Of a DNA stretch of 64,000 bases, positions 2,371 to 48,991 are shown one piece after another. The stretch lies in the IMG/VR virus record IMGVR_UViG_3300045988_089680, positions 1 through 64,000 of that record; one strand, given 5' to 3'. The notes below the pieces were generated by a model, which had not been told where the DNA came from, made no database searches, and was given only the letters and a program-made list of their open reading frames with translations. Numbering within the stretch: position 1 is the first letter of the stretch; each line of letters begins with the position of its first letter. The stretch is from a virus. Made by a program: the position numbers and the translations under genes.

Positions 2371-2410
2371 TATTTGTTATTCAAATACTTTTAGTATATT
2401 TGCAAAAAAG
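2371..2410 (+). promoter_or_regulatory. conserved 40-bp promoter module, copy 1 (upstream of portal)
   Basis: Sequence tatTTGttattcaaatacttttagTAtaTTTGcaaaaaag has a TTTG -33 box and a TAnnTTTG -7 box. Near-identical copies lie at 8621, 18241 and 63891. Confidence 0.6.
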
Positions 2411-3860: not shown

Positions 3861-4043
3861 ATGTCTATTAATAAGAGAAAAATTCTCCTAAAAACAGAAA
3901 GCTTTTGTTATAGATGTGCCCATGTCTCCAATCCACGTAATAAAAGCGTAACGGGACAACCCACACTTGCTACATGTCCTTTTGAGAAATACGCCATACT
4001 ATACCAAAGGGTATGTGTAAACGACCATTTTAAACCGAAATAG
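3861..4043 (+). CDS. hypothetical small Cys-containing protein
   Basis: 60-aa ORF whose stop abuts the ATG of the next gene. Confidence 0.35.
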   Translation: MSINKRKILLKTESFCYRCAHVSNPRNKSVTGQPTLATCPFEKYAILYQRVCVNDHFKPK

Positions 4044-5603
4044 ATGAAGCCCAAGACACCAAATCAGAAGAAAGCATACGATGCCCTGAACCTACGACTA
4101 ATTAAGTATATGTCGCAGGTTCAGGGCATTTATGATAGAATAGCAAACCAAATAGCTATTGCTGTTGATAGTACTAATTATGACGGCTCAGTTGAATTTA
4201 ATTTTAGAGATTATCCAGAATTAAATCAAACAGTCAAAAATTTAATGTCTGATTATGCAGGACAGATGAATAACCTCATCTATTCTGGAACTTCAAACGA
4301 GTGGAAGGAAAGTAATATAATGCAAGACCTTTTAGCTCGTAAGGTTCTTCGTGCTTATGATTTTGAGAAGGGTGGAGATAAGTATCAGAGATATTTTCAG
4401 CCTAATACAGATGCGCTTAAAGCATTCCAACAAAGAGTAGATAGAGGGATGAATCTCTCTCAAAAGCTCTGGTTACAGTCACAGGCATTGAAGAAAGAAA
4501 TGGAGCAAACCATTTCAGCTGCAATTGAAAGAGGACAATCTGCGGTAGTTCTTAGTAAGAGAATAAGCAAATATCTCTCGGACTTTCCCTCAATGAAAGC
4601 AGACTATGCAGAGAAATATGGAAAAGCGGTAAGCTGTCTTGACTGCCAATATGCTTCTATACGTTTGGCACGAACGGAGATAAACATGGCTTACAGAAAG
4701 GCAGAGCAGATAAGATGGAAACAATTTGACTTCATCTTGGGGTATGAGATTAAATTGAGTAAGCGCCATCCTGCACCAGACATCTGCGATGATCTGATTG
4801 GAATATACCCTAAAGACTTTGTTTTCTTAGGATGGCATCCTAACTGCATGTGTTATGTTGTGCCTATTGTGATGAGTGATGAAGAGTATTATAACCCCAA
4901 ACAAAGTTTAAATAGTTACAAGCCACTGCCAAGTGGTCTTGGTTCTTGGATAGATAAAAACTGTTTACGAATACTATCCTCAAACATAAGGGAAACTTTG
5001 CCATACTGGTTACGTGACAACAAAAGTGTTAGAGATTGTGCCATATTGATAGGAAAAGCGAGGGAAATAGGTAATGATTTTAAGAAAATAGGAGAAACTA
5101 TAGCAGAAAAGGTAGGAGGAATCGTAACACCTGTTAATTATAAATCGTTTTCCTCTATGTATAGAAAGCTTATTACAGAGAATATCGACATCACAGACAT
5201 CAAAGATGCATTGAGAAGTACAATTATTGTCGATAAAGACAAGTTAGAGGAAGTGGTTTTCAATTTAAAACATTTAGATACATTCCTCAGACACAAGGAA
5301 CAAAAGCCTGAAATGTTCAATGGGTATAGTGGAAATATCATTAATCTATCTATGCCCAACAATATTGTGGCAGAGATTCAAGTAAATACAGCCAAAATGA
5401 TTTATGCAAAAGAAACAGAATCAAATGCAAAAAGAATACTCGGAGAAGAGTTATGGAATAAGATACGTTCGGAAACTAATTTGCAAGGAGGATTAGGACA
5501 TAAATATTATGAAGAAATACGGATGTTAAACAAAGTTACAGACCTACCAAAGATAGAAAGACTAAAAAGATTCTCTGAAGAATATTATTCACATTTCAGA
5601 TAA
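4044..5603 (+). CDS. MuF/SPP1-gp7-like minor head protein fused to a C-terminal RelA/SpoT-like (small alarmone synthetase-type) toxin domain
   Basis: MuF motifs are LARTEINMAY and WHPNCMCY. The C-terminal ~170 aa carry RSH-synthetase-like motifs: YKSFSSMYRKL, DIKDALRSTIIV, NGYSGNIINL and AEIQVNTAKMIYAKE. Confidence 0.7.
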   Translation: MKPKTPNQKKAYDALNLRLIKYMSQVQGIYDRIANQIAIAVDSTNYDGSVEFNFRDYPELNQTVKNLMSDYAGQMNNLIYSGTSNEWKESNIMQDLLARKVLRAYDFEKGGDKYQRYFQPNTDALKAFQQRVDRGMNLSQKLWLQSQALKKEMEQTISAAIERGQSAVVLSKRISKYLSDFPSMKADYAEKYGKAVSCLDCQYASIRLARTEINMAYRKAEQIRWKQFDFILGYEIKLSKRHPAPDICDDLIGIYPKDFVFLGWHPNCMCYVVPIVMSDEEYYNPKQSLNSYKPLPSGLGSWIDKNCLRILSSNIRETLPYWLRDNKSVRDCAILIGKAREIGNDFKKIGETIAEKVGGIVTPVNYKSFSSMYRKLITENIDITDIKDALRSTIIVDKDKLEEVVFNLKHLDTFLRHKEQKPEMFNGYSGNIINLSMPNNIVAEIQVNTAKMIYAKETESNAKRILGEELWNKIRSETNLQGGLGHKYYEEIRMLNKVTDLPKIERLKRFSEEYYSHFR

Positions 5604-5668
5604 ACAAAGTTAAATACTTGTATAATTGAATATAAATTCATAACTTTACAACCGATAAAATATTAAAT

Positions 5669-5896
5669 ATGAATGAGTTAGAAATTTGGAAGAAATTGCC
5701 AACAAAAGGTCAGATGTATATATACGACGATTTTGAAAAATTGGCAATAAGACTGCATGTAACCAAAGAGGTTATAATGTGTAACTTCAAGAGAAAAGGC
5801 AAAAGAGAAAAATTGGGGGATTTCACTTCTGCCTTTATAAGAGAAAGCATTTGTTACGGAAAAGAAATAACAAAAGAAGAATATGATAAACTTTGA
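5669..5896 (+). CDS. hypothetical protein (candidate immunity/adaptor)
   Basis: 75-aa ORF between the toxin-domain gene and the HD hydrolase. It overlaps the next gene by 14 nt. Confidence 0.4.
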   Translation: MNELEIWKKLPTKGQMYIYDDFEKLAIRLHVTKEVIMCNFKRKGKREKLGDFTSAFIRESICYGKEITKEEYDKL

Positions 5897-6329
5897 GGAA
5901 GCAGTAGAAATAGCATATAGATACCATAAGGGACAGAAAGACTTAGATGGTAAACCAGTTTTACTTCATCCTTTAGCGGTTGCACTTATGGGTAACAATG
6001 ATACGGAAAGAATAGTGGGGGTATTACATGATGTTATAGAAGATACAGATTGCTCCTTCACAGACTTAGAAAATTTGGGCGTAAGCAAAAATGTCATCAA
6101 TACCTTAGAATTGCTGACTCATACAGAAGACGAATCGTACGGCAAATATCTTTCACGAATAATTACATCAGGCAACATTATAGCCTTAAAGGTAAAGATA
6201 AATGACTTGCGCCATAACATAAGTCGGAATAATGAAGATACCGAACAAAAGAAAAGGATTAAAGCTAAACACCAAAAGGCGTTAAAAAAGATTGAAAACT
6301 TTCTAACGGCATATAATCTTAAAAAATAG
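5883..6329 (+). CDS. HD-domain (p)ppGpp/alarmone hydrolase-like protein (small alarmone hydrolase type)
   Basis: 148 aa. Motifs YHKGQKDLDGKP..LHP and LHDVIEDT match the HDxxED signature of RSH hydrolase domains. Confidence 0.65.
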   Translation: MINFEEAVEIAYRYHKGQKDLDGKPVLLHPLAVALMGNNDTERIVGVLHDVIEDTDCSFTDLENLGVSKNVINTLELLTHTEDESYGKYLSRIITSGNIIALKVKINDLRHNISRNNEDTEQKKRIKAKHQKALKKIENFLTAYNLKK

Positions 6330-6346: not shown

Positions 6347-6353
6347 ATACCTT

Positions 6354-6577
6354 CTAAGCTTGTCAAATATTCTCTCCATATACTTACACGTATTTTCATA
6401 ATCAGCGTGTCACAGCGAAAAACATACACTTACATTACTCCTTAGTCTAAAAGTTAGCTAAAGTTAAATTATTGATAATCAGTAAATTACGAGTTTATAA
6501 ATTTGGTCAATTCACAAAAAATGACTACCTTTGCAATAGATAATTAAAACAATAACAACTTAAAGATAAGAGCAATG
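6354..6577 (+). repeat. 224-bp regulatory/leader repeat, copy A (includes a promoter: TTTG at 6502-6505, TAccTTTG at 6526-6533)
   Basis: About 88% identical by eye to 16508-16732. It ends at the ATG of the downstream gene. Confidence 0.75.
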
Positions 6578-8427: not shown

Positions 8428-8604
8428 ATGGTAAAGAGAATCTATAAAATAGAAGTCCAAGAGATTCTGTCACGTACGATAGAAATTGAATCATCTACAG
8501 CTAAATCTGCAAGAGAAAAGGTTGAAGAAATGTATCGTAATCAAGAAATAATTCTTGGCGGAGACGATTTCAAGGAGAAAAGTATAAAAATAGTATTAGG
8601 GTAG
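8428..8604 (+). CDS. small DpnD/PcfM-like protein (below the ORF-track cutoff)
   Basis: 58-aa ORF that I translated by hand: MVKRIYKIEVQEILSRTIEIESSTAKSAREKVEEMYRNQEIILGGDDFKEKSIKIVLG. Its start lies in the AAGAGCAATG context. Confidence 0.45.
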   Translation: MVKRIYKIEVQEILSRTIEIESSTAKSAREKVEEMYRNQEIILGGDDFKEKSIKIVLG

Positions 8605-8620
8605 AAATTTCTACGCTTTC

Positions 8621-8660
8621 TATTTGTTATTCAAATAATTTTAAGTATATTTGCAAAAAG
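8621..8660 (+). promoter_or_regulatory. conserved 40-bp promoter module, copy 2
   Basis: Sequence tatTTGttattcaaataattttaagTAtaTTTGcaaaaag. Confidence 0.6.
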
Positions 8661-8669
8661 TTACAAGAT

Positions 8670-9068
8670 ATGAAAATTTACACATCATACTTCGCAAACA
8701 GCAAGAAGTTACACAAGGATAATATTGTAGTTATAGGAATAGCTTTGTACCCTCCTAAGTGGTTTGCCGGACCTTCGTTGAAAATGGTATCACCATCATA
8801 CGACATCCTGCACAATTCACAAGACCATGAGGATTACAAAAAGCGTTTCTTCTCTGAAATATTAGCTCATAGAGACCCAAAAGTATTCCTCTCCAACATA
8901 GAGAGATTGGCAAATGGTAAAGATGTAGCTCTTTGCTGCTACGAAAAGCCTGACGATTTTTGCCATCGTCATTTGGTTGCAAAATGGATGAACGAGAAAT
9001 TAGGTCTTCAAATCCAAGAGTATGGGGTTTCTAGGAATCCAACATACATAGAACAGAGTTTGTTTTAG
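8670..9068 (+). CDS. DUF488-family protein
   Basis: 132 aa. The LCCYEKPDDFCHRHLVAKWM motif is typical of DUF488. Confidence 0.55.
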   Translation: MKIYTSYFANSKKLHKDNIVVIGIALYPPKWFAGPSLKMVSPSYDILHNSQDHEDYKKRFFSEILAHRDPKVFLSNIERLANGKDVALCCYEKPDDFCHRHLVAKWMNEKLGLQIQEYGVSRNPTYIEQSLF

Positions 9069-9147
9069 TAAAGTATATTAATATACCGTATGGTTGACAG
9101 CTCGGAAAGACGAGCATTTTTGCGTGTAAAGTAATTTGTTATATTAA

Positions 9148-9220
9148 GCGGAGATAGCTCAGTTAGCAGAGCGCAATGTGTCCATCATTGAGGTCGTTGG
9201 TGCAGTTCCAACTCTCCGCT
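9148..9220 (+). tRNA. atypical tRNA-Gly(UCC)-like gene
   Basis: Cloverleaf folded by hand. The acceptor stem is gcggaga/tctccgc, the anticodon stem caatg/cattg with loop tgTCCat, and the T stem gttgg/ccaac. Discriminator is T. Non-canonical features are G at position 33, a D loop lacking GG, and a T loop TGCAGTT instead of TTCRANT. Confidence 0.55.
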
Positions 9221-9235
9221 CTAAATACTAAGAGC

Positions 9236-10303
9236 ATGAAAGTTACAATAATTGGAGCAGGAAACATAGGAGTAGCTTTCGCAGCTGACCTTTCTATTAA
9301 GGGACATGAAGTTACACTCCTAAAAACATCTTCATACAAATCAGATGCCTTTGATAGACTTATCAAGAACGGCAACAGGGTTTTTCTTAAAGAAAAATCA
9401 ATTTATACAGAAACTGCAATCAAAGAGGTTTCTAAAGACCTCAGCAAGGTTGCAGACGCAGAAGTTATATTTTGTACTATTCAGAGTAACTTCTATGAAG
9501 GTATAGTAGAACGTATACATCAATACCTTCACAAGGATCAGATTGTAGTCTGTGTCTGTAGTTACGCATCTTCCTTCTATTTTGATAAACATTGCAGAAT
9601 ACTACCAATGTTAGTTGAAGCAACTGGTCCATATTTGGAAGGACGAGTAGAGTTGGATGATAAACCAAACGAAGTTGTTTTTCGTGTTGGTTATAGGCAT
9701 GAAGTCATTCCTGTTTCATGCTTTTCTAATCATGATACATGTATAGAGAAACTGCATAGAATTAGCAAAGGTTTTATAGGAAAATATTGCGTGCTTGAAT
9801 CTGCATTACTCAATCCAAATATGGTGTTGCATACGATAGGTTCAATTATGAGTATTCCGAGAATAGAATATTCAAAGGGAAATTTCTGTATGTATCGTGA
9901 AGCATACGCAAGAGGAAATGACTCCACCATCAATCTATTGATGAGACTTGACGAAGAAAAGATGAAAGTCTTAAAAAACTTGGGCTTTTTCAAAACAAGC
10001 GTATTTGAAGCAGGAGGTTTTAATATGTCAGACCCAATAGAGAGTTTGTATCGTTACTCAGAATCTAATGATAGAGCAATCAGCCCTACGTCTGTTCACT
10101 CACGTTACATCACAGAAGATGTTTCAGAGGGATTGGTACTGATGGAAAGTATTGCCAATCATATAGGCTTAGAGCTTCCGGTTACATCATCCCTCATTAC
10201 GCTTGCAAGTGTAGCTTTAGGGATTGACTTCCGAAAGACAGGAAGAACTATTCAGAGATTAGGTATTGTTAACGAAATAGATATGCTTCATGAATGTAGA
10301 TAG
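9236..10303 (+). CDS. NAD(P)-dependent opine (octopine/nopaline) dehydrogenase-family protein
   Basis: Rossmann motif MKVTIIGAGNIGVAFA, plus C-terminal RYITEDVSEGLVLMESIA typical of the octopine_DH helical domain. I moved the start off the tRNA-overlapping track ORF (9176). Confidence 0.6.
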   Translation: MKVTIIGAGNIGVAFAADLSIKGHEVTLLKTSSYKSDAFDRLIKNGNRVFLKEKSIYTETAIKEVSKDLSKVADAEVIFCTIQSNFYEGIVERIHQYLHKDQIVVCVCSYASSFYFDKHCRILPMLVEATGPYLEGRVELDDKPNEVVFRVGYRHEVIPVSCFSNHDTCIEKLHRISKGFIGKYCVLESALLNPNMVLHTIGSIMSIPRIEYSKGNFCMYREAYARGNDSTINLLMRLDEEKMKVLKNLGFFKTSVFEAGGFNMSDPIESLYRYSESNDRAISPTSVHSRYITEDVSEGLVLMESIANHIGLELPVTSSLITLASVALGIDFRKTGRTIQRLGIVNEIDMLHECR

Positions 10304-12368
10304 CGACATAAAAAACAGAACTTTCGGTATTGAAATCGAAATGTGCAATCTTGAAAGGGCGAAGGTAAATTTGCCCGAAGGTTACTCCTGGAGCAAGGAA
10401 GAGAGCATTGATAATACCGATTGTTCAAGCAATAAGCAGTTTGGTGGAGAGGTGAATACCCCTCCACTACATCTTTGCTGCCTAAAAGAGCTGCATGACC
10501 TCCGTTCTGTATACGAATCGATGGTTGTTGCAGGTGGCAAGATTAAGTGGAGTATAGATACTCATGTCCATATATATGTAGGCGATTTGACAGTCGATCA
10601 GCTAAAGAAAGTATATCTATTCTTTTATGTCTGCTATCCATATTTTAAAAGATATGCGAAAATTTCAGATTGGGATGAAAACATATTCAATGCAAAACCT
10701 ATTCCTACAGAAAAATATTTCGAAGGAGTAAAAAATGCACAGACGTTTGATGATTTACAAACTCTCTTCACTAATCAGTCTAAGAAGGGGTTCATACGTC
10801 ATGCAGTGAATATCTCGGCATATTTTAAGACAAAGACGATAGAATTCAGAACGTTTCATGCAACTGATGATTTCTATCGAGCTATGAATTGTGTGTATTC
10901 TGCATATCGCATATTCTATTACGCCATAAGCCACGAATTGGAAGATTATCAATCCATAACATCTTACAAGCAATTTTGTGAGGTTACGGGGCTTAAATAT
11001 GATACTCCAGAAGAGTTATGTCCACTCCTATACCAAGGGAATCCATATAGCGCAATAGAAGCTTTTATGACTATGCCTTTGCCCTACAATTCTAAAATGG
11101 TTTCAGTTCTGTATGATGCCATAAAAGCTAACGGACACAAGGAAATCTGCATAGTAAATGGCTTCATGTATTACTATGAGTTATTCTTCCTTGATAAGGT
11201 GGAAGTATCTATATACTGCCAAGATGCCTACTGCTATCTGCTCTATATGTTGGCAAATGGCAAAACATCACTTACATATAAGGATAAGCTTGCATGGTTA
11301 GAAGATTACAATAACCCGACACCATCAAGACAGCTTGCTTTGGCTCTTTATGCGGTGAAACTGCAAAAGTATTTCATGAGCGAATCGGCAAGAAATAGTG
11401 CCATCTTCGAAGCGTTGAAAATTAAGGCAAGGGAATCTATCGAGAAAACCGAGCAGGTAAATGAGCGATTGATGAGATTACTCACAACATGTGATTTCCA
11501 TGTCGGAACACTAGAAGAAGCCATTAAGAATAAGAAGGTAATCTTCTTTAATTACGGAAGAAAAGAGAAGAATCAGAAGAGAGCATTCAAACTCATTTCT
11601 GAGAACAGTGACTTAAAATCGGACTTTTCAGTCGCAAGAAACGACTATTACAATCTTGTGGAAAGTATTCCTAGCGATAGCTATTTCTACTATTTTAGCA
11701 ATAGTCCTTACCTGAGAAACTTGCATAAAATTGCTTTAATGGACAGTTCAACTGGTGAAAGGTGGGCGGCTGGAAGATACTTATACTGCAATAAGCCAAT
11801 TGTAAAAAAAAGTGTAAACACATCGTATACTTCGTTCAGAGATGAGTGCAACGAGATTGTCCCACCAGACAACTTAGAGATCAGCAACCCAAACTTGTTG
11901 AAAATAGAGGTAGTTTCACCACCGCTGCTGAAGAATCTTCAAAGAAAGTATATCAAAAAGATAGATCAAGTTTCCAGTGCGGTATTCCCATTTGTGGTTA
12001 AGTACGATAAATATACTCTTGGGGGATTTGGATTTACGTTATCTAAGTATGACAAATACGACTTGTTCCAAATTTCGGATTTTTGCACCAACAACGCAAT
12101 TCCAAGGTTGAGTAAGCTAATTCTTTACTGCGTTTTATCCGTAGGAGTACAGAAATATCTTAATAGGAGAATGCACAAGTTTATCAACAAGGTTCTATCT
12201 CTTGCTTACACACATAAGCCAGTGAGTATGAAATATCGTGGTGTGTACAAAAAAGTTAAAGAGCACTGCACATCATCTTATCTTGCTTACGAAGGAATAC
12301 TTGGTCTATACCCTACGAGTAAGGAAATCATCGAGAAATATCAAAAATCGTTGAAGAATGGAAAATGA
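10290..12368 (+). CDS. amidoligase (COOH-NH2 ligase, glutamine-synthetase-like fold) domain protein with a ~475-aa unknown C-terminal region
   Basis: N-terminal motifs FGIEIEM, GGEVNTPPL, THVHIY, RHAVNISAY and TIEFRTFHAT match Amidoligase_2. It overlaps the upstream gene by 14 nt. Confidence 0.6.
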   Translation: MNVDSDIKNRTFGIEIEMCNLERAKVNLPEGYSWSKEESIDNTDCSSNKQFGGEVNTPPLHLCCLKELHDLRSVYESMVVAGGKIKWSIDTHVHIYVGDLTVDQLKKVYLFFYVCYPYFKRYAKISDWDENIFNAKPIPTEKYFEGVKNAQTFDDLQTLFTNQSKKGFIRHAVNISAYFKTKTIEFRTFHATDDFYRAMNCVYSAYRIFYYAISHELEDYQSITSYKQFCEVTGLKYDTPEELCPLLYQGNPYSAIEAFMTMPLPYNSKMVSVLYDAIKANGHKEICIVNGFMYYYELFFLDKVEVSIYCQDAYCYLLYMLANGKTSLTYKDKLAWLEDYNNPTPSRQLALALYAVKLQKYFMSESARNSAIFEALKIKARESIEKTEQVNERLMRLLTTCDFHVGTLEEAIKNKKVIFFNYGRKEKNQKRAFKLISENSDLKSDFSVARNDYYNLVESIPSDSYFYYFSNSPYLRNLHKIALMDSSTGERWAAGRYLYCNKPIVKKSVNTSYTSFRDECNEIVPPDNLEISNPNLLKIEVVSPPLLKNLQRKYIKKIDQVSSAVFPFVVKYDKYTLGGFGFTLSKYDKYDLFQISDFCTNNAIPRLSKLILYCVLSVGVQKYLNRRMHKFINKVLSLAYTHKPVSMKYRGVYKKVKEHCTSSYLAYEGILGLYPTSKEIIEKYQKSLKNGK

Positions 12369-13086
12369 AGATAGATGGAAATACGCAAAAGTTGATATAA
12401 ACCTCATAGATGAGGTAGAAATCAATGCAAACGAAATGTCGGGTGAAGACTTCGCCCAACTAACAGACAACATTGCTAAGTCTGGATTGAGTAGTGTGCC
12501 TACCTGTATCAAGAAGGATAATGGTAGATACATCATGATCAGCGGTAATCATCGTTTGAGGGCTTGCAAGAAACTGCACTATAAAATGCTTGGCATCTTA
12601 TATGTAGAAGAGAGCGAGATTACAAATGATGAAGCTATTGCTATTGAATTATCTCACAACTCCCTTCATGGTGAAGCTAATGTTAGCATTTTGAAGAAGT
12701 TGTTTGCATCAATTCAATCTATCGACTTTAAGAAGTTTGCCCATGTGAACATCGACGAGATTAAGCCAATAAGCACAGAGGGTATAGATGTATATGCCAT
12801 GCAGGAGAATTTCGTATTCACCATCATCCTCTACCCTAGTTCATTTGCTAGTCTGGACACATTGTATGGAGACATTCGTGAGCAAGCTCGCAAAAGTGAT
12901 GCTCTAGTTCTAGCTTCCGAAGAAGATAACGAGAAGACCCTGCTTAAGATTCAACAGGACATAGGTAAGGAGTTTGGCATAAAATCTCCAAGTATCTCAT
13001 TTGCCAAATTGCTAGAGTTAGCGAGTGAACGTTTAATCGAAATAAAGGAAGGAGAAAAAGAAAATGATTTGGAGCATAACAAGTAA
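12358..13086 (+). CDS. ParB/Srx-fold (ParB N-terminal domain-like) protein
   Basis: Motifs YIMISGNHRLRACKKL and IELSHNSLHGE. It overlaps the upstream gene by 11 nt. Confidence 0.6.
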   Translation: MENEDRWKYAKVDINLIDEVEINANEMSGEDFAQLTDNIAKSGLSSVPTCIKKDNGRYIMISGNHRLRACKKLHYKMLGILYVEESEITNDEAIAIELSHNSLHGEANVSILKKLFASIQSIDFKKFAHVNIDEIKPISTEGIDVYAMQENFVFTIILYPSSFASLDTLYGDIREQARKSDALVLASEEDNEKTLLKIQQDIGKEFGIKSPSISFAKLLELASERLIEIKEGEKENDLEHNK

Positions 13087-13927
13087 AGAAGAGATGGAGA
13101 GCTATGGAATTTCTTCCGTCTTCAAATATTATCGAGAAGCCTTAGGAAAAGAAAATGTCAAACTAGCTGTTGTAGATGAAAACGATAAGCTAGACTTCTT
13201 ACAAAAGGAAGATGTGGCATTACTTAGAACCGCAAGTGAATCTCTCATCAAGACTATCCGAGCAAAAGGTGTAAAAACAACTGCAGAGGATTTCTCTAAA
13301 TACGAATTGGTTAAGGATAAGGAAAAGGTCTTCCGTTTCCTTTGTTTTTGCGGTATTAGGGCACCGAAGCAATATCAAAACCATTTATCATCATTACAAG
13401 AAGGTAAGACATATTTTGTTAAACCTAGATATGGCAGTGATAGCTTTGGTATATCAGAGAAAAGCATCTGTCGTACCCCCAAAAAGGTAATAGAACAGAT
13501 GAGATACATTAAAGAAGAGCTTGGAATGGAAAGTATAGTTGAGGAGTATATTGCTGGCTCTGATTGCACAGTAACGTGCATTAATAACTGCACAACAAAC
13601 GAGCTACTTCTGTGTTCAATCTCGATTGATTGCGACGAAACCAATGGCATCCAAACACGAGACTGTAAGGTTGGTTTTAAAGAATGCTGTTCAGCAATAA
13701 ATGATGTTGAGTTAAATCGTTTGGCAAGCGAAATATTCCATTACTTAGAATTAAAGTCTCACGCAAGAATTGATTTTCGCAAGGGAATAGATGGTAGATA
13801 TTATCCTATAGATATCAATCTGCTTCCTGGGCTTGGTCCATTAGACCATCTTTCGAAATCACTTTTGTTGTGCAAGAATATGTCGTATATAGATGCTTTG
13901 AAAGCAGTCATAGCATCTGCAAGTTAG
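13064..13927 (+). CDS. ATP-grasp ligase (D-Ala-D-Ala ligase-like)
   Basis: Motifs YFVKPRYGSDSFGI, VEEYIAGSDCTV and ARIDFRKG..YPIDINLLPGLGP. It overlaps the upstream gene by 23 nt. Confidence 0.6.
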   Translation: MIWSITSKEEMESYGISSVFKYYREALGKENVKLAVVDENDKLDFLQKEDVALLRTASESLIKTIRAKGVKTTAEDFSKYELVKDKEKVFRFLCFCGIRAPKQYQNHLSSLQEGKTYFVKPRYGSDSFGISEKSICRTPKKVIEQMRYIKEELGMESIVEEYIAGSDCTVTCINNCTTNELLLCSISIDCDETNGIQTRDCKVGFKECCSAINDVELNRLASEIFHYLELKSHARIDFRKGIDGRYYPIDINLLPGLGPLDHLSKSLLLCKNMSYIDALKAVIASAS

Positions 13928-13938
13928 AAAGGTTGATT

Positions 13939-14286
13939 ATGGCAAAGGTAAGAAGAACAGAATTAAAAAAGATTGCCGCTGCTTACGAAAAGAAGGGCGG
14001 CAATATGGCTGCTACGGCAGTAGCTTTGGGCATTACACGCCAAGCCTTATATAACTGGAGAAAAGAGGATGAGAAGTTAGCCAAGATGTTGGACGATATA
14101 GATGAAGGCATTCTTGACTTTACTGAAAGCAAGTTGGTTGAAAAGGTGAACGAAGGCAACCTAACTGCAATAATCTTCCTTCTGAAAACCAAGGGCAAGA
14201 AGCGTGGCTATGTCGAGCAAGTAGATAACAGATTAGTAGAAAATCCATTCGAGAAGTTAATGAAGGAGCTTCCCGATGATGATTAG
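13939..14286 (+). CDS. terS: terminase small subunit
   Basis: HTH segment AATAVALGITRQALYNWRKE plus IIFLLKTKGKKRGY. It lies just upstream of terL. I chose the ATG at 13939 rather than the track start at 13870. Confidence 0.65.
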   Translation: MAKVRRTELKKIAAAYEKKGGNMAATAVALGITRQALYNWRKEDEKLAKMLDDIDEGILDFTESKLVEKVNEGNLTAIIFLLKTKGKKRGYVEQVDNRLVENPFEKLMKELPDDD

Positions 14287-14816: not shown

Positions 14817-16331
14817 ATGTTTGAACAGAAGGCTAAAAAGAAAATGATTGCATGGCGCAATGATTGGTGTCTCTTCGCCAAAGAAGTCTTGAAGGCTCAC
14901 CTTGACGAAGAGCAAAAGGCTATATTGCGTTCTGTTCAAAAGAATAAAATGACAACGGTAGCCAGTGGAACTGCAAGGGGTAAGGATTACATCGCTGCCG
15001 TAGCTGCTTTATGTTTCCTCTACCTCACTCCTCGCTTTGGTAAGGATGGCAGTTTGGAAAAGAATACCAAGATTGCCCTTACGGCGCCGACAGGAAGACA
15101 GGTAACAAACATCATGATTCCAGAGGTAGCACGTTTATACAAGAAGGCCGGCTTTCTTCCCGGTCGTTTGTTGGCGGATGGTATCAGAACCAATTATGAG
15201 GAATGGTATTTGACTGGTTTCAAGTCTTCCGACGACAACATAGAGGCATGGTCGGGATTTCACGCAGTAAACACCATGTTCATCGTAACCGAAGCTTCGG
15301 GTATCTCAGATACCATCTATAATGCAATCGAAGGTAACCTACAGGGAAACTCTCGATTGCTATTGGTATTCAACCCTAACGTTACAACGGGATATGCAGC
15401 CAATTCCATGAAGTCTCCTCGTTTCAAGAAGTTCAGACTATCATCCCTTAACGCAGAGAATGTAGTCAGAAAAAAAATTATTATTCCTGGTCAAGTTGAC
15501 TATGAATGGGTAGCTGACAAGGTCTCAGCATGGGCACAGAAAATCAGAAAGTCTGAGTTTGATGAAGGTCGTGGCGACTTTATTTGGGAAGGAGGCTATT
15601 ATACTCCCAACGACCTCTTCCGCGTTAAGGTTCTCGGTATATTCCCGAAGGTTTCAGAAGATACTCTCATCCCTTACGAATGGTGTGAGATTGCACATAA
15701 ACGATGGGAAGAGCTCAAAGAAAGTGGATTCATCACCCATAAACCAGTACGCTTAGGTGTCGATGTAGCGGGTATGGGTCGCGATAGGTCTTGCTTCATT
15801 CCAAGACAAGGGAATTATGTATCAGAAATAAGATGTCATAACTCAGGAGGAAGGGCAGATCACATGGCAGTCGCAGGTCAAGTAGCTAACTATCTTAAAA
15901 CGGATCACCGTAACAAGGCATTCATTGATACAATAGGTGAGGGAGCGGGTGTTTACTCACGATTGATAGAACAGAATATACTAACAGCATTCTCCTGTAA
16001 GTTTTCTGAAGGAGTGAGAAACAAACATGATGTCACTGGTTGTTACACATTCGCTAATATGAGAGCCTATTTATTTTGGTGTATCCGTGATTGGCTTAAT
16101 CCAAAGAATGGCTTTTTTGCAGCTCTTCCACCAGATGAAGAGTTAGACCAAGAATTGTGCGAGCCACATTGGTTCTTTCAGTCTGATGGCTCCATCATCA
16201 TAGAGCCGAAAGAAGAAATCAAAAAACGCCTCAAACGCTCTCCCGATAAGATGGACGCACTTGCTAATACATTCTATCCATATGACTATGATAAGGATAA
16301 TGATATTCAACTATTAAATAGTGTTGTATAG
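14817..16331 (+). CDS. terL: terminase large subunit
   Basis: 504 aa. Features are a Walker A-like SGTARGKD, ALTAPTGRQ, a Walker B-like FIVTEASG, and the nuclease-domain motif GVDVAGMGRDRS. Confidence 0.85.
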   Translation: MFEQKAKKKMIAWRNDWCLFAKEVLKAHLDEEQKAILRSVQKNKMTTVASGTARGKDYIAAVAALCFLYLTPRFGKDGSLEKNTKIALTAPTGRQVTNIMIPEVARLYKKAGFLPGRLLADGIRTNYEEWYLTGFKSSDDNIEAWSGFHAVNTMFIVTEASGISDTIYNAIEGNLQGNSRLLLVFNPNVTTGYAANSMKSPRFKKFRLSSLNAENVVRKKIIIPGQVDYEWVADKVSAWAQKIRKSEFDEGRGDFIWEGGYYTPNDLFRVKVLGIFPKVSEDTLIPYEWCEIAHKRWEELKESGFITHKPVRLGVDVAGMGRDRSCFIPRQGNYVSEIRCHNSGGRADHMAVAGQVANYLKTDHRNKAFIDTIGEGAGVYSRLIEQNILTAFSCKFSEGVRNKHDVTGCYTFANMRAYLFWCIRDWLNPKNGFFAALPPDEELDQELCEPHWFFQSDGSIIIEPKEEIKKRLKRSPDKMDALANTFYPYDYDKDNDIQLLNSVV

Positions 16332-16475: not shown

Positions 16476-16521
16476 CTAAAGCTTATCTAAAGCTTATCTA
16501 AGCCTATCTAAGCTTGTCTAA
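16476..16521 (+). repeat. tandem 10-11-nt repeat (ctaaagcttat x4, degenerate)
   Basis: Four head-to-tail units lie at the 5' edge of leader copy B. Copy A has a single unit. Confidence 0.7.
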
Positions 16522-16732
16522 TAAATTCTCCATATACTTACACATATTTTCATAATCGGTGTGTCACAGCGAAAAATACACACCTACATTACTCCTTGGT
16601 TTAAAAGTTAGCTAAAGTTAAACTATTGGTTATCAGTAAATTACAAGTTTTGAAATTTGGTCAATAGCAAAAAAATGACTACCTTTGCAACAGATAATTA
16701 AAACAATAACAACTTAAAGTTAAAGAGCAATG
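16508..16732 (+). repeat. 224-bp regulatory/leader repeat, copy B (includes promoter TAccTTTG)
   Basis: Aligns with 6354-6577 and ends at the ATG at 16730. Confidence 0.75.
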
Positions 16733-17536: not shown

Positions 17537-18211
17537 ATGGATATGATAAGTAATTTGGTTGCAGAGGAAAAACCAGAATATAAGATAAAGGAAAGTGGAG
17601 ATTTTTCATCACTTACATCAGTTGAATTATTAGCAATATTGTTTGGCAAGAGTTCGACATCAACTCTTCAAAAGGCAAGGGGTATTCTTAATCTAACAGA
17701 TGGTAGTATAAGAGGTATCTCTAAACTTACTACGAAACAGATAAGAGAAGTAACGAATTTCACAGAACAAAAGGCTAATGCTGTCCTTGCAGCATGCGAA
17801 CTTGGACGAAGAGCGCAAATAGAAGAATCCAATAATATCAACCTCGGTAGTGCATATGGCATATACAACTTCATGAAGCCACGAATAGGTAGATTAGACC
17901 ATGAAGAAGTTTGGGTAATGCTAATGGATAACGCCTTTAATCTAAAGAAGGTAAAAAAGATAAGCAGCGGAGGACTTACAGAAACTGCATTTGATGTGCG
18001 TGTTATTTTAAAAGAAGCACTTCTCAATAATTCTACAGTGATAGCCGTTGCACATAATCATCCAAGTGGTAATAAAAGACCAAGCAAAGATGATGATGGA
18101 GTAACACGGAAGCTACAACAAGCATGTGACACCATGAGAATAAAACTGATAGACCATGTAATCGTAACAGATTTAGGTTATTATAGTTTCTCAGAAGAAG
18201 GTAAACTATAA
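17537..18211 (+). CDS. radC: RadC-like JAB/MPN-domain protein
   Basis: JAMM motif AVAHNHPSGNKRPSKDD, plus an N-terminal helix-hairpin-helix-like region. Confidence 0.75.
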   Translation: MDMISNLVAEEKPEYKIKESGDFSSLTSVELLAILFGKSSTSTLQKARGILNLTDGSIRGISKLTTKQIREVTNFTEQKANAVLAACELGRRAQIEESNNINLGSAYGIYNFMKPRIGRLDHEEVWVMLMDNAFNLKKVKKISSGGLTETAFDVRVILKEALLNNSTVIAVAHNHPSGNKRPSKDDDGVTRKLQQACDTMRIKLIDHVIVTDLGYYSFSEEGKL

Positions 18212-18240: not shown

Positions 18241-18280
18241 AATGTTTGCTATTCAAATATTTTTAAGTATATTTGCAAAC
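18241..18280 (+). promoter_or_regulatory. conserved 40-bp promoter module, copy 3 (head operon)
   Basis: Sequence aatgTTTGctattcaaatatttttaagTAtaTTTGcaaac. Confidence 0.6.
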
Positions 18281-19608: not shown

Positions 19609-20967
19609 ATGCATGAATCTCTTTTTATTCAGTTTATAAGGGCAATCTTTCCTAAGCTCAGTCTGTACGTAAAGGAGAAGGAGACCCCAAAAAACCGTAC
19701 ATATCTATTCAAGAAGATGTTGCGTGAGGTCTACTCTGCAGACCAGAAGTGGGAAGGAACATCAGCAAACACCACTTATGTTGCTGCTGACATTGTGGAG
19801 ATGGATTCTCCTTTGCCATTGAAGAAACGTGGTTCTATAGCCACATCAAATGGCAAGCTACCGAAGATTGCCATGAAAAAAACTCTTTTGGAGTCAGACA
19901 TCAACAATGTCAACATTATGAAAGCGCAGTATGAGAATTTGGTAACGAAAGCCAATACCCTCCAAGCGCAAGGTCTTGTAGAGCAAGCAGCGGCAGCAAA
20001 ACAAGCAGCAGACAATGCAAAAGCTCGTATCATCAACAAACTCATGAATGATGGCGTAGCTTGTTCTGTGGGTATCGAAGAACGTAACGAATTGAACTTT
20101 TTGGCAGGTCTCTCCAATGGTATCATAGCTGTTGAGGACGAGGACAATTCGGGAAAGGCAATACGTGTCAATTATGGTTATTTGCCAGCTAACAGCTTCC
20201 GTACAGCAACAAATGGAGTAACCACAAGAGACGACTTCGAGAAGATATTCGAGAAAGCAAATGCTGATGGCAACACCATCATAAAGGTATTGCTTGCAAA
20301 GAATCAGTTGAAGAAAATCCGTAAGGAACAGTGGGCGAAGGAACTCGTTGCTGACTATGAAGGCAAGACATACACAGAGGAGTCCAAGTTGAAAACCCCA
20401 TCAGAAAGCTCTTTCTCAGAAGCCTTTGAGGACGAGTTCGGTGCTTCAATTGAGACAGTTAACCGAACGGTTGTCATTGAAAAGAATGGCAAACAGCATT
20501 CAGTAAAGCCTTGGAATGAGAACAATATTATCTTTATATGTAACGAAGAGGTAGGTTCACTTGTATGGGGTACACTCGCAGAATCCACAAACCCTGTAGA
20601 AGGTGTAAAGTACAGCACCGTAGATTCGTACAAGCTTATCTCTAAGTACTCAAAGAATGAGCCTTCTTTGCAGGAGGTAACATCAGGGCAGGCTCTCATA
20701 CTTCCTGTTATCGAAGACGTAGACCAGATATATATGCTATCTACAAAGTCAGAAGAGGTAGATGAGGAAGCAGAGAAAACCGACACTTCCGACGAGTACA
20801 CCACCTATAAAGGTAAAAAGTACAAGAAAACCGACCTTATCTCAGCTTTAAAAGCTGTAGGTGCAAATGTCAAGTCAAATTCTACGGACGAGACTTTGGT
20901 AAAGGCACTGAACGCACTTAGTGATGAAGACGAGGAGGCTCTTCTTTCACAGTTAACTGAACAGTAA
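19609..20967 (+). CDS. major capsid protein with an acidic linker and C-terminal HeH/Rho_N-like motif
   Basis: About 452 aa in the canonical capsid position. The C-terminus reads KKTDLISALKAVGANV...TLVKALNALSDED. Confidence 0.6.
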   Translation: MHESLFIQFIRAIFPKLSLYVKEKETPKNRTYLFKKMLREVYSADQKWEGTSANTTYVAADIVEMDSPLPLKKRGSIATSNGKLPKIAMKKTLLESDINNVNIMKAQYENLVTKANTLQAQGLVEQAAAAKQAADNAKARIINKLMNDGVACSVGIEERNELNFLAGLSNGIIAVEDEDNSGKAIRVNYGYLPANSFRTATNGVTTRDDFEKIFEKANADGNTIIKVLLAKNQLKKIRKEQWAKELVADYEGKTYTEESKLKTPSESSFSEAFEDEFGASIETVNRTVVIEKNGKQHSVKPWNENNIIFICNEEVGSLVWGTLAESTNPVEGVKYSTVDSYKLISKYSKNEPSLQEVTSGQALILPVIEDVDQIYMLSTKSEEVDEEAEKTDTSDEYTTYKGKKYKKTDLISALKAVGANVKSNSTDETLVKALNALSDEDEEALLSQLTEQ

Positions 20968-24128: not shown

Positions 24129-27100
24129 ATGCCAGGTTTAAAGTTTGACATAACAGGAGATAATTCAGCTGTACTGAGAGCCTTTAAGGGTGTGCAAGAT
24201 GGTGTGGCACAGACAGCAAGAGTAGTCGAGCAGCAGGGTCAGAGCATTGAGAATGTTTTCAATCGCATCAAGTCTGTTGCATCGGTAGCTGTTGCTGGCT
24301 TTACGGCAAAGGAAATCATCAGCACACTGGGTACTGTCCGAGGAGAGTTTCAGCAGTTTGAGATTGCCTTTGAAACCATGCTCGGTAGCGGGCAGAAGGC
24401 AAAGGGAATGATTTCGGACCTCGCCAACCTTGCTGCTTCTACACCTTTTGACATGAAGGGTGTGGTAGATGGAGCAAAGCAGCTCCTTGCATACGGATTT
24501 GCAGCCAACGAGATTACCGATACCATGAGAAGACTCGGTGATGTATCTGCAGGATTGGGATTGAACCTTCAAGACCTCACATGGCTCTATGGTACCACGA
24601 TGGTGCAAGGTCGATTGTTCACAAGAGACTTGATGCAATTTACAGGTCGCGGTATTCCTTTGACAGAGGAACTTGCCAAGCAGTTCGGAGTTACCAAGGA
24701 TAAGGTTTCGGAATTGGTGACCGCAGGTAAGGTTGGTTTCCCCGAAGTCAAGAAGGCTATCGAAAGCCTTACCAATGAGGGTGGTAAGTTCGGTGGATTG
24801 ATGGAAAAGCAATCTCACTCTATTACTGGTCAGGTAAGCAATATTAAAGATACTATCGAAATGGCTATCAATGACCTTGGCACTCAGACAGAAGGCTTGA
24901 TGAATGATGCTTTGGACATCACATCTACGGTTATTGACCATTGGAAGGAGATAGGTGAGGTTATCCTTGCAGCCGCATCTGCCATCGGTCTTTATAAGGC
25001 AATGGCGGTAAGTGTAGCAGCCTTTGATACAGCTACAGCAAATGTAGGCTATGCGGCTGAGTTGTCAGCCCTTGACGCATTACTTCCAAAGAAGGAAGAA
25101 GTAAAGAAGACAGACCTTGAAGAAGCAGTAGCCAAAGGTCAGTTATCAGCAGCACAGGCGGAATTGGTAGCATCCAAGCGTGAAGAGGTTGCAGCTTACG
25201 TTGCCGAATTGCAAACCAAGGCAAAGGTTATGCAAGACGAGGTTCACGTATTGGAGAATAAGCTTGCGCTACAAGATAACGAAGTACAATCACTCCAAGA
25301 TGCTTATGATGCCCTTGACGATTATGTATCAGCAGAAGTCAGAGATACGGCAGCAACAAACCTCAATACGGCAGCAAACGAAAGAAACAATATAGCAAAC
25401 CAACTTAAAGCAGCAAGAGAGAAAGCTGCAACGGCTGCAACCAATGCCAATACAGCATCCCAAGGATTGAATACCGCAGCGACAGCTCGCGATACAGCAA
25501 CCAAAGGAATATGGGCACAGGTTACTCTCTTATGCGAGAAAGCACAGAGGGCATGGAATGCTTCTATGTTCTCTAGTCCATTATTTTTGATAGCAGCTGC
25601 CATAGTAGCTACTACATATGCTGTGTATAAGCTTGCTACTGCAGAATCGGCTCACGAAGCAGCCGTAAGAAAATCCAATGAAGCATGGGATGAGTTCGAT
25701 AACAAGGTTAAAGAACGTCAGCAGAATATAGAAAGCCTTATCAGAACCATACAATCTGAAACGGCAACGGAATTCGAGAAAGCAGAAGCCTACCAAAAGC
25801 TCTCTAATCTCGCTCCTCAACTTACAGATCAGTATGACCAAGCTGCCATAGCTTCTCTTGACTTTTCTAAGGCCCAAAAGGAAGTGGCAGAAAGCATGGA
25901 TGAGTCAAAATACGACAAAGCCGTAGAAGATGTAAAAAAATACAAAGATGAAGTAAGCAAACTCCAGCAATTATTATCAAGTGATGCAAAGTACAACGGA
26001 GGAGGTCAAGGAATACTACTCAGTCGTCAATTAGAGACAGCAGAAGCAGCATTAGATCGTGCAGAGGACAGACTCAATAATATCATTTCCCTACGTAATC
26101 AAGCTGCCGAAAACGCAAAGCCTATAGAGGTTCGCTTGCAAGAAGCGCAGGAGAACGAGAGTGTTCGTCAAGAAATCTTTGACTTCTACGATGAAGCTAT
26201 GACGCTAGCTAACGACTGGCAATCAGCCAACGAAACCATCAACTACGCCACTGGCGAGAGTAGATTGGACGCATTCATCAATAAAGCTCAGATGGAAATA
26301 GCAGATCTTCGTGAAGACATTAAGAAGAATCCAGCTGATCTGAATCTCCGCATGCAGGAGTCTGAGAAAACAAAGGTTCTGGACAACCTCTTAGCGATGA
26401 AGCGTAATTGGGCGGTTACTGGCGCAACAACCATTCCTTTGATTTTTAGGGCTCAATGGAACACCGCCAAACAATCCCTCAATCAAGCCAAAACAAAGGC
26501 ACAAGCGTTGGTTAATGCGGGTTCTACGGAAACCTACCAGCAATCTTACAACAAGGCGCAGCGAAAATACTACGCAGCCCAAAAGAAGGTTGCTGCTATG
26601 GAGAAAAATAAGAGCAAATACACCACTGCTCAGTACGAAACCGCCATCCAAGACTTGAAAGCAGCCAAGGATGCCTACTCTAAGCTAGGTGGTGATGTAA
26701 GTGGGAATGCAGCGAAGGCAGCAGCAACGGCACGTAAGACTCGCATCAAGGAGGTAAACCAAGCTATCAAGGTCCGGGAGGAGTTGAACAACCGCTTGAA
26801 GGCTTTGCAGCAGAAAAATACTGACGAGACTATCTCCCTTATGCAGGAAGGCACGGAGAAGAAGCTTGCTCAAATCAAGAATGACTATGCCAAGCGCAAA
26901 GCCGAGATTGACAAGCAGGAAGCCGAGTTCAAGAAGAAGAACAAGGAAGCTGGCAAGAAAGAAGCCCTTACTTCTGCTCAGTCTAATGCTCTCAGTAAGG
27001 CAAGAGACCTCGCTACCCAAGAATACAACAAGAAGCTTGATGAGGTCAACAGGGAAGCCCTCACCTCTATGCGCGACTACTTGAAGGAGTATGGTTCTCT

Positions 27101-47737: not shown

Positions 47738-48991
47738 CTATTTATCCTCGTTTATATCAAGTATATAATCTATTACCTTACGATTTGCATCGTCTATTTT
47801 TTTTCGATTAAAATTGATATACACTTGTGTAACAGCAGCTCCTGTCGAATAAGAATGTCCAAGAGCACGACTTATAACATCTTCTGGTATATCAAGTTCG
47901 CTTGCCAATGTAGCCCATGTATGCCTTGCCCAGTATGATGATAGACGAGGGAACAAAGGTGTGTACTCCTTGATGAATTTATGGCGATGCGTTTTTGAAA
48001 ATTTCGGGTTTTGAATTATAACGCATTTCCCTACTCTTTTAAGCTGATAGTCAAAACTACCTATAAAAGATTGTGTAGTCTTATATCTTTCTAAGATGTC
48101 TAGTAAGTACTCGTTGCCTTTGTATCGATTTATTATCTCAAGTGCTTCTGGTTCTACTTTTATAGAATACAACTTTTTGGTCTTCCGGCGTCTGTAGTTA
48201 ATTCTACCTTGACTATCTATTTCTCTCAATTCGCACAAATCAGCAATGTTAATGCCAATTAGATATATACATAACTTAAATAAGTCTATAGTTCGCTGTA
48301 GATGAGGATCGGCTACTGCAAACAATGACCTAACCTCATCTAAAGTTAAAGAGCGTTTTACTGTCTGTTCCGTTTTAATCTTAAACACACGAAAAGGATA
48401 ATTCTGAGTAATCTCGTTATCTAAAGCATCATTGAAAACAGCTCTAATACTACGAAAATGCATGTTACGTCCATTTATAGTAGGAGAATACCTCCGTAGG
48501 AAAATGTCAAATCCGGTAAGCCAGTCTTTTGTTATGTTTTCAAATGTTTTTGACTTAATATGATTGTCATACTCTAACATCTTCTTTGCTGTTAATAAAT
48601 ATATCTTTTTTGTTCGCATTGCAGAACGAGAGTTCGCAAAAGAAAGAAAACGATTATAGAAACTGTTAGACGCAGCAACAGCAGGATCCAGCATTTCTTG
48701 CACTTTATTTTTTATTTGTGTTGCTGTCAGTTTTGTTAATTTTCCATCCTTGGTTAAATCCATGATTATATTAGACACTTTATTGCGTAGAGTGTCTATA
48801 TAACTTTGAAGAGCTTTCTTATTAGGATGGTCTTTAATACGTTCTTTTTCTGCATCCCATTGAGTGGGATATATTCTCACATTCAAAGATATATAAGCAG
48901 AAGACCCCTTCTTATTTATGCCGATTTTAAGAGGAGCTTCTTCACCACGCTTTACTGAACGCTTATCTAAATATAAATGTACTGTTGCCAT
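47738..48991 (-). CDS. int: tyrosine recombinase/integrase (Bacteroidota Arm-domain type)
   Basis: 417 aa. The N-terminal Arm-type beta domain reads VHLYLDKRS...PLKIGINKKG. The C-terminal catalytic motifs are ARHTWAT, LGHS and VYI. Confidence 0.85.
   Translation of the reverse strand: MATVHLYLDKRSVKRGEEAPLKIGINKKGSSAYISLNVRIYPTQWDAEKERIKDHPNKKALQSYIDTLRNKVSNIIMDLTKDGKLTKLTATQIKNKVQEMLDPAVAASNSFYNRFLSFANSRSAMRTKKIYLLTAKKMLEYDNHIKSKTFENITKDWLTGFDIFLRRYSPTINGRNMHFRSIRAVFNDALDNEITQNYPFRVFKIKTEQTVKRSLTLDEVRSLFAVADPHLQRTIDLFKLCIYLIGINIADLCELREIDSQGRINYRRRKTKKLYSIKVEPEALEIINRYKGNEYLLDILERYKTTQSFIGSFDYQLKRVGKCVIIQNPKFSKTHRHKFIKEYTPLFPRLSSYWARHTWATLASELDIPEDVISRALGHSYSTGAAVTQVYINFNRKKIDDANRKVIDYILDINEDK

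Follow-up and report, generated by a model that had tools for sequence, protein, structure and literature searches.

A probable Apk2-type toxin-immunity cassette with a divergent Aph-family hydrolase in the head-gene region of a temperate gut-Bacteroidales phage

The stretch of DNA analysed here, referred to as the window, comprises positions 1-64,000 of the IMG/VR virus record IMGVR_UViG_3300045988_089680 (position 1 being its first letter; 64,000 nucleotides in all) and represents a temperate siphovirus-type phage of gut Bacteroidales. In its head-gene region three consecutive open reading frames (ORFs) encode a 519-residue fusion protein, a 75-residue protein and a 148-residue HD protein, and we consider it very probable, with odds of roughly 85%, that together they constitute a toxin-immunity system of the Apk2 type. 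The cassette is a new copy of a described system, Apk2-Tis1/IapK-Aph1, which was reported and experimentally tested between 2023 and 2025; the sole mildly new element is the divergent Aph subclade to which the predicted hydrolase belongs, the rest having already been described. A sequence-only reading of this DNA had proposed a MuF head protein fused to a RelA/SpoT-like toxin domain and followed by an HD alarmone hydrolase. The ORF coordinates and sizes that it gave are correct, as is the 14-nucleotide overlap shared by the end of the 75-residue ORF and the start of the HD gene (ATGATAAACTTTGA, 5883-5896), and the motifs on which it relied are found in the fusion protein (ARTEINMAY at residue 209, WHPNCMCY at 264, YKSFSSMYRK at 366, DIKDALRSTII at 385, GYSG at 427 and EIQVNT at 444) and in the HD protein (LHDVIEDT at residue 48). 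Its RelA/SpoT-fold toxin end and its HD alarmone hydrolase are likewise upheld by the matches to Tas1 and Aph1, respectively, that are given below.

Judged from its sequence, the C-terminal part of the fusion protein (residues ~336-519) is a Tas1/Apk-type pyrophosphokinase. Searched as a single sequence, the stretch 336-516 matches the (p)ppApp synthetase Tas1 of the type VI system of Pseudomonas aeruginosa (6OX6_A) with an E value of 4.7e-19, and a 14-sequence profile retrieves Tas1 at 5.6e-36 and no other PDB sequence at E<=1. The AlphaFold model of the domain has a predicted local distance difference test score (pLDDT) of 85-95, and its top Foldseek match is again Tas1 (E 2.6e-12, template modelling score (TM) 0.83 when normalised to Tas1, 2.4 A, 32% identity), seven orders of magnitude ahead of the runners-up Rel (1.9e-5), CapRel (1.2e-4) and SAS1 (~1e-3), each with a TM <=0.5 and CapRel with one of 0.30. 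The best BFVD match is a phage protein named 'Tas1'. In the alignment of 14 homologues the residues of the motifs syn1 to syn5 are invariant, namely K367, S371, R374, K375, D385, D388, R391 and T393, together with G427, Y428, G430, E444, Q446, H486, Y489 and E490.

The product expected of such an enzyme is (p)ppApp, rather than (p)ppGpp or modified tRNA. A published rule separates the residues of Apk-type enzymes at syn2, syn3 and syn4 from the consensus of the (p)ppGpp synthetases, or RSH (RelA/SpoT-type) enzymes (PMC12226406), and the toxin domain reads D388-A-L-R-S-T at syn2 (the R-x-T form and not A-V-R), G-Y-S-G430 at syn3 (a glycine, without the histidine and with no Ser-x-His) and E-I-Q-V-N-T at syn4 (V-N and not I-R). 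The sequence-only reading had left the product open among (p)ppGpp, (p)ppApp and pyrophosphorylated tRNA; of the three candidates, only (p)ppApp finds support, from the likeness of the toxin to Tas1 and of the hydrolase to Aph1. The product, the toxicity and the neutralisation attributed to this cassette are those that we infer from its characterised homologues.

The 75-residue protein, to which the sequence-only reading had given no name, is predicted from sequence comparisons to be an immunity protein of the Tis1/IapK type, which would occlude the acceptor-nucleotide site of the toxin. Taken alone, it matches Tis1 (6OX6_B) at E 0.098, and its single-sequence structure model reaches a pLDDT of 49. 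When the ORFs found at the same post-toxin position in related loci were collected and aligned, the profile of this syntenic set matched 6OX6_B at E 2.2e-22; since three members of the set are proteobacterial and close to Tis1, the search was repeated with a Bacteroidales-only profile, which matched Tis1 at E 1.1e-7 in a PDB-sized search space. The Tis1_ImmP family (PF24154) is detected in 10 of the 12 syntenic homologues, with a best value of 2e-39. Thus, of the hydrolase-type immunity proposed for the cassette, the hydrolase stands, as an Aph-family HD protein, but not as the sole protector: with the 75-residue ORF as a putative Tis1/IapK-type blocker, immunity would be dual.

By the same kind of comparison the HD protein is a member of the Aph family, within which it falls in a divergent subclade. 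The solved structure that it matches best is that of the (p)ppApp hydrolase Aph1 (7SMG, E 1.1e-18), followed by Rel HD domains at 1.8e-7 or weaker and by MESH1 at 6e-3. The metal ligands of Aph1 (H33, H53-D54 and D110) are kept as H29, H49-D50 and D108, E53-D54 and N112 align with E57-D58 and N114 of Aph1, and the length is 148 residues against 149 in Aph1; helices 0 and 9 are judged from the length and the alignment to be missing. The Aph1 signature (D24, R96, D116, R119, K133 and Y134) was taken from PMC10083569, with which the chain numbering of 7SMG agrees, and three of its residues are kept as D20 (=D24), R92 (=R96) and K129 (=K133), the N-M-D-I-T-R of Aph1 reading N-I-S-R in the window hydrolase. 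Of the two residues reported to set Aph specificity, D24 and R119 (PMC10083569), the former is kept (D20) and the latter is ambiguous. Among 111 aligned homologues of 130-200 residues the pattern DLxHN-x-[D/S/E]-R plus K-H is conserved and the position of R96 is variable, and canonical Aph1-type hydrolases come after related toxins in four other loci (L001, L003, L004 and L009). By analogy with Aph1, (p)ppApp hydrolysis would be the expected activity and (p)ppApp the expected specificity. The departure of the subclade from the published signature makes it a cheap target for finding out what sets (p)ppApp specificity.

The N-terminal domain of the fusion protein may belong to the MuF/gp7 family, to which it is tied by a set of mostly weak matches. 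PHROG families of head morphogenesis or minor head proteins are matched (phrog_7625, E 5.1e-93, full length; phrog_115, E 7.8e-28; also 1657), as is PHROG 16625, the Bxa-type N-terminal family (E 1.3e-56). The NCBIfam model TIGR01641 (phageSPP1_gp7) covers residues 154-275 at E 0.007, from position 2 to position 108 of its 109, and is found in 10 of 14 homologues (best 2e-6), in all cases below its cutoff. In phmmer searches the domain matches gp25 of Mycobacterium phage Onyinye, a 'MuF-like minor capsid protein' (1e-12), and head-morphogenesis proteins of a Clostridium phage (1.7e-18) and a Riemerella phage (2e-37), the genes of which each lie just 3' of a portal gene. Likewise, the motifs RLTARTEGH and DCNCRC of gp7 are collinear with RLARTEINM and HPNCMC of the 519-residue protein, and Foldseek of the N-terminal model, itself a poor one, returned weak matches to MuF-like and GpF-like proteins. 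The MuF-like gene comes directly after an SPP1-type portal gene, a single 60-residue ORF separating the two, in the order of SPP1 gene 6 and gene 7. The swapping of C-termini that typifies polymorphic toxins is clear in this family. A conserved junction motif, LPYWLRDN, lies at residues 319-326, and the 871-residue protein P0070 is 86% identical over a 340-residue alignment, near-identical up to residue ~285, and past ~330 carries an unrelated C-terminus with no similarity, the junction motif LPY[WF]L[RK]DN being common to both proteins; in another locus (L010) the same N-terminal domain bears an ADP-ribosyltransferase C-terminus.

Several observations weigh against these assignments. Four Pfam models fall short: RelA_SpoT (PF04607) gives the toxin domain 19.9 bits (E 9.2e-4) against a gathering threshold of 27, Tis1_ImmP gives the 75-residue protein alone 20.4 bits (E 5.5e-4) against a cutoff of 27, HD_4 (PF13328) gives the hydrolase 21.2 bits against 27.2, and the MuF model PF04233 is matched neither by the full fusion protein nor by any of 13 homologues at E<=1, nor by the N-terminus alone at E<=10. 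At syn3 the toxin has G-N-I where G-x-N was reported for the Apk2 of Streptococcus pneumoniae, the asparagine of G-x-N being missing. In the hydrolase two of the six signature residues are missing, D116 of Aph1 being replaced by Ser114 and Y134 by His130, and R115, the equivalent of R119, is two residues nearer the asparagine and aligned with it in the HMMER alignment only. Moreover, the N-terminal model has a pLDDT <50 over residues 79-213, and hhalign gave no significant match between the family profile and SPP1 gp7. The Pfam searches that the sequence-only reading had recommended as a check would, by themselves, look ambiguous. Nevertheless, PF04607 is found at E<=1 in 10 of 14 homologues (best 8.1e-6), and the toxin domain, as modelled, has the RSH fold despite its sub-threshold score. 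As to PF04233, SPP1 gp7 matches it at 6.8e-33, and CDKM9 gp04, Onyinye gp25, Riemerella CRP5 gp24 and Gilda gp14 match the window protein and yet miss it; the model is narrow, since other annotated MuF-like proteins also escape it. The MuF head protein of the earlier reading is retained with the weak backing of PHROG, TIGR01641 and phmmer, but not with that of PF04233. In Bacteroidales phages these four Pfam models under-detect the cassette, and surveys based on Pfam will consequently miss it.

The three ORFs are real genes under purifying selection. Measured against L081, a relative with ~80% protein identity, the ratio of nonsynonymous to synonymous substitution rates (dN/dS) amounts to 0.11 in the N-terminal domain and 0.13 in the toxin domain of the fusion protein, to 0.37 in the 75-residue ORF and to 0.16 in the HD protein, and it is this range, 0.11-0.37, that marks them as constrained. 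The order toxin, Tis1-like gene and Aph-like gene recurs in the Bacteroidales loci L001, L003, L004, L009 and L053 and is also found in L050, from a bin annotated as Waltera, and in proteobacterial loci. In the same comparison with L081, the synonymous rates (dS) of the toxin, Tis1-like and hydrolase genes are 0.40-0.74, below those of the saturated flanks (the portal gene and orf383), which hints that the cassette may have been exchanged more recently than its surroundings.

Bacteroides promoters have the consensus TTTG-N-TAnnTTTG, and on this basis matches to TTTG-N18-22-TAnnTTTG were regarded as putative promoters. The window contains 12 of them against 2.5 expected, a number that none of 100 shuffled sequences reached, and the scan revealed no consensus promoter between the toxin and immunity genes of the window. 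Since copies of the motif stand at 2373-2402 and then at 6502-6533, with none between them on the + strand, the portal gene, orf60, the toxin gene, the Tis1-like gene and the hydrolase gene would form one transcription unit, with a likely start at 2373-2402 and a boundary at 6502. A sigma-70 scan found fewer sites than in shuffled sequences and a terminator scan remained at background, neither being informative for a Bacteroidota host.

On these grounds we propose how the cassette may work. By analogy with gp7, the MuF/gp7-like domain would attach to the portal, a few copies being packaged, and the Tas1-like domain would use ATP as the donor of a beta,gamma-pyrophosphate that is placed on the 3'-OH of ATP, ADP or AMP, so that (p)ppApp would be made and the ATP/ADP pool would collapse. 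The producing cell would be shielded by the 75-residue Tis1/IapK homologue, which would block the acceptor site, and by the 148-residue HD hydrolase, which would turn (p)ppApp back into ATP, ADP or AMP. As suggested by the gene layout, toxin and immunity genes would be co-transcribed late, with translation of aph coupled to that of the Tis1-like gene, and the immunity proteins would protect the cell during virion assembly. Packaging through the MuF domain followed by ejection into the next host, the virion delivery suggested by the sequence-only reading, is speculative and draws on the presence of that domain and on the position of the gene after the portal gene; SPP1 gp7 is packaged and exits with the DNA (cited in PMC10083569). 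We may further conjecture, as an unlikely extension, that the Aph subclade, an abundant one, accepts other substrates than Aph1 or a wider set of them, for instance both (p)ppApp and (p)ppGpp, and, separately, that the virion ejects the Apk2 fusion to collapse ATP on entry. If the subclade does hydrolyse both alarmones, the phage could reset the stringent response of its host as well as neutralise its own toxin.

The role of the toxin may also be seen differently: it could be released when the lysogen lyses, or act on the gut epithelium or on competitor bacteria as a fitness factor, without being ejected. We find this somewhat doubtful. The same N-terminal domain carries ADP-ribosyltransferases of the Bxa type, and Bxa, a related MuF toxin, is reported to act outside its producer (PMC11699363); in addition, no consensus promoter lies between the toxin and immunity genes, so that immunity appears to be tied to the production of the toxin and not to lysogen defence. 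A (p)ppApp synthetase, however, needs cytoplasmic ATP, its gene here lies between portal and head genes, and the precedent of SPP1 gp7 favours departure with the DNA; no export signal turned up, no search aimed at one having been made.

As for the product, the toxin might instead make (p)ppGpp, or (p)ppGpp together with (p)ppApp, in the manner of SAS-like or EAS-like enzymes, with the HD protein hydrolysing both alarmones and the cassette acting on the stringent response of the host and not just depleting ATP, which we regard as very improbable. The RSH fold is common to both kinds of enzyme, members of the Tas1/Apk1 clade that make both products have been reported (PMC12691689), and modest ppGpp hydrolysis was observed in 2 of the 12 Aph clusters tested (PMC10083569). 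Nevertheless, syn2, syn3 and syn4 are of the Apk type and not of the RSH type by the rule of PMC12226406, and no (p)ppGpp synthetase is matched by sequence at E<=1. The hydrolase admits arguments on either side: its DLxHN resembles the DRLHN of Rel and it is without D116 and Y134 of Aph1, but it keeps D20 (=D24) where Rel has guanine-stacking arginines, and Aph1 is its best match by 11 orders of magnitude. In addition, all MuF-Apk2 proteins tested so far yield (p)ppApp only.

It is scarcely credible that the toxin is a tRNA-pyrophosphorylating toxSAS of the CapRel, FaRel2 or PhRel2 type serving in a toxin-antitoxin or abortive-infection module, since, even though toxSAS modules occur in phages and prophages and CapRel is among the fold matches (E 1.2e-4), that match is far weaker than the one to Tas1, PDB searches gave no sequence match to any tRNA-modifying toxSAS structure (at E<=1, none of FaRel, FaRel2, PhRel and CapRel matched the toxin domain), the partners are of the Tis1 and Aph1 types, the targets of which are the acceptor-nucleotide site and (p)ppApp, and what is joined to the toxin is a structural head domain and not a regulatory pseudo-ZFD antitoxin domain.

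The features of the window are listed in Table 1. The association of the cassette with a temperate phage follows from the integrase and the siphovirus structural genes found in the same window. Copies of the cassette, identical or ~80% identical, occur in metagenome contigs, the 519/75/148 arrangement being repeated in L081-L085, and megablast against phage records gave a single match, an unannotated contig from human faecal samples. Full-length genomic relatives, the best of which is 58% identical, come nearly all from Bacteroidales (Prevotella, Caecibacteroides, Alistipes, Porphyromonas and others); two belong to Dyadobacter.

Table 1. Features of the window, in order of position; functions are predicted.
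Feature	Position	Strand	Evidence or remark
Bacteroidetes-type promoter motif, 5' of the portal gene	2373-2402	+	Motif scan; putative function
SPP1 gp6-type portal protein, 476 residues	2419-3849	+	Pfam PF05133, E 5.5e-26; PHROG 64, E 4.2e-49
Cys-rich 60-residue ORF between the portal and MuF genes	3861-4043	+	dN/dS 0.14; conserved in relatives
519-residue fusion protein ORF	4044-5603	+	ORF call
MuF-like (SPP1 gp7-like) minor head domain, N-terminal, residues 1-327	4044-5024	+	PHROGs, TIGR01641, phmmer
C-terminal toxin domain, a Tas1/Apk-type adenosine 3'-pyrophosphokinase; residues 336-519 and stop	5049-5603	+	6OX6_A, Foldseek
Tis1/IapK-type immunity protein, 75 residues	5669-5896	+	PF24154, 6OX6_B profile match
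Aph-family small HD alarmone hydrolase, 148 residues	5883-6329	+	7SMG; PHROG 990, E 4.8e-35
Next Bacteroidetes-type promoter motif, 3' of the HD gene	6502-6533	+	Inside the 217-nucleotide repeat
DpnD/PcfM	8428-8604		
DUF488	8670-9068		
Octopine-dehydrogenase-like ORF	9176-10303		
Amidoligase, DAM-like and phage-GNAT fusion, 692 residues	10290-12368		
ATP-grasp protein	13064-13927		
Large terminase subunit	14817-16331		
RadC-like JAB protein, between the terminase and head genes	17537-18211		
Major head protein	19609-20967		
Tape measure protein	24129-29240		
Integrase	47738-48991	-	PHROG 1, E 1.8e-22

The portal and MuF-like genes are located ~11 kb upstream of the large terminase gene, with a cargo block between them, which is an unusual packaging and head-gene order for a siphovirus. 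The Cys-rich 60-residue ORF, similar to a 56-residue ORF that precedes the MuF gene in L010, may encode a small zinc-ribbon protein. The cargo block (8428-14286) resembles a DNA-hypermodification module, and at its place L081 and L082 carry a different set of genes (GLF, ATP-grasp, TAGT and an Orn/Arg decarboxylase). Within it, a tRNA-Gly gene (TCC, 9148-9221) overlaps the mechanically called start of the octopine-dehydrogenase-like ORF, the real start of which is probably the methionine at ~9236, because its NAD-binding motif begins near residue 22. A direct repeat of 217 nucleotides (6353-6569 and 16507-16723), 89% identical and 94% over the gene-proximal 140 nucleotides, holds a Bacteroidetes-type promoter and a 5' leader that extends as far as the start codons of genes 6575 and 16730; its two copies bracket the 10-kb block that separates the head genes from the toxin cassette. 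Promoter-like sequences of a second family, TTTG[TC]TATTCAAATA.TTTTA(A)GTATATTTGCAAA, nearly identical to one another, are found at 2373-2402, 8623-8653 and 18245-18275, 5' of the genes for the portal and DUF488 and of gene 18295, and may define a shared regulatory class. In the early region (54611-54915), three copies of a 96-nucleotide repeat rich in iteron-like units of GGGCACAC form a candidate origin or operator array.

By itself the cassette changes little, being one more example, from an uncultured gut phage, of a biochemically characterised family. Its closest described counterpart is the Apk2-Tis1-Aph1 cassette carried by a temperate phage of Bacteroides caccae (BACCAC_01148-01146; Ahmad et al. 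2023, PMC10083569), from which the Aph1 structure 7SMG derives. There, the MuF-fused Apk2 is a toxin that produces (p)ppApp, against which BcTis1 or Aph1 alone gives partial and the two combined give full protection, and it was noted that Tis1-like genes always come after MuF-Apk2 genes, the aph genes being variably present (PMC10083569). The equivalent proteins of B. caccae, S. pneumoniae and Mannheimia haemolytica are toxic producers of (p)ppApp that both partners neutralise (PMC10083569, PMC12226406). MuF polymorphic toxins are the class of Jamet 2017, as cited in PMC10083569, and the analogy that the sequence-only reading had drawn with such toxins and with neutralisation by a hydrolase corresponds to this published Apk2/Tis1(IapK)/Aph1 system (PMC10083569, PMC12226406). 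The window cassette shares with that of B. caccae the order and sizes of the three genes, a Tas1-like C-terminus joined to what may be a MuF-type N-terminus, a small ORF of predicted Tis1 type, a small HD hydrolase, a portal-adjacent position and a Bacteroidales temperate phage as carrier. They differ in the hydrolases, which are ~36-40% identical depending on the alignment, the window subclade having HN-x-S-R plus K-H and Aph1 having DN-x-D-I-T-R plus K-Y; Apk2 and BcTis1 were compared by description only. A Parabacteroides metagenome-assembled genome (L010, 5995-8785), the hydrolase of which is 87% identical to the crystallised Aph1 of B. caccae, was considered as a route to the B. caccae Apk2 and rejected, because the locus carries a MuF-ADP-ribosyltransferase. 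This toxin is followed by a 264-residue ORF that looks, by eye, like an ADP-ribosylhydrolase and then by the Aph1, an orphan, since L010 has no (p)ppApp synthetase; the arrangement suggests either cassette swapping that left the hydrolase behind or a poly-immunity locus.

In the counterpart with G-x-N at syn3, the form reported for the Apk2 of S. pneumoniae, the architecture, the gene order and the R-x-T form of syn2 are the same as in the window; its syn4 reads Y-H where the window has V-N, the window has G-N-I at syn3, and the host phyla differ. The Bxa-type MuF toxins described by Alexei et al. 2024 (PMC11699363) have an N-terminal domain of the same family, which in Bacteroidales was also found fused to an Apk2-like synthetase (including KAB3885718.1 of Phocaeicola vulgatus), with a small ORF and then a gene for an Aph1-like hydrolase behind it, a variant noted in that work bioinformatically only. 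Bxa systems have a dual immunity made up of one blocker and one product-reversing enzyme, as is predicted for the window cassette, but in the former the immunity proteins are Bsi and BAH and the toxin is an ADP-ribosyltransferase, for which the window has the alarmone-synthetase alternative.

The Tas1 (Apk1)-Tis1 pair of P. aeruginosa PA14 (6OX6) resembles the window cassette in its toxin (32% identical, with the same EIQVN at syn4) and in its immunity protein (26% identical). In contrast to the window protein, Tas1 has a PAAR delivery domain in place of MuF and is delivered by type VI secretion and not by a phage, and its locus has no hydrolase partner. FaRel-ATfaRel and the toxSAS CapRel are also RSH-fold toxins, and FaRel is neutralised by a small alarmone hydrolase; however, they have no detectable sequence similarity to the window toxin, stand alone as toxin-antitoxin or defence modules and, in several cases, modify tRNA. 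Outside the MuF context, a Tas1-like C-terminus is found in L062 (1279 residues) and L079 (2160 residues), with one or both partners not found at the thresholds used, and in L078 (270-1441) a short toxin ORF at the contig end stands before Tis1-like and Aph-like genes. In L054 (103-7200) and L064 (3478-7216), non-MuF proteins of 2151 and 1006 residues carry a Tas1-like domain at their C-terminal ends, and a Tis1-like gene and an Aph-like gene come next, in the order seen in the phage. The trio of toxin, blocker and hydrolase is therefore not restricted to MuF carriers, since the same order is found after large non-MuF proteins in these proteobacterial loci.

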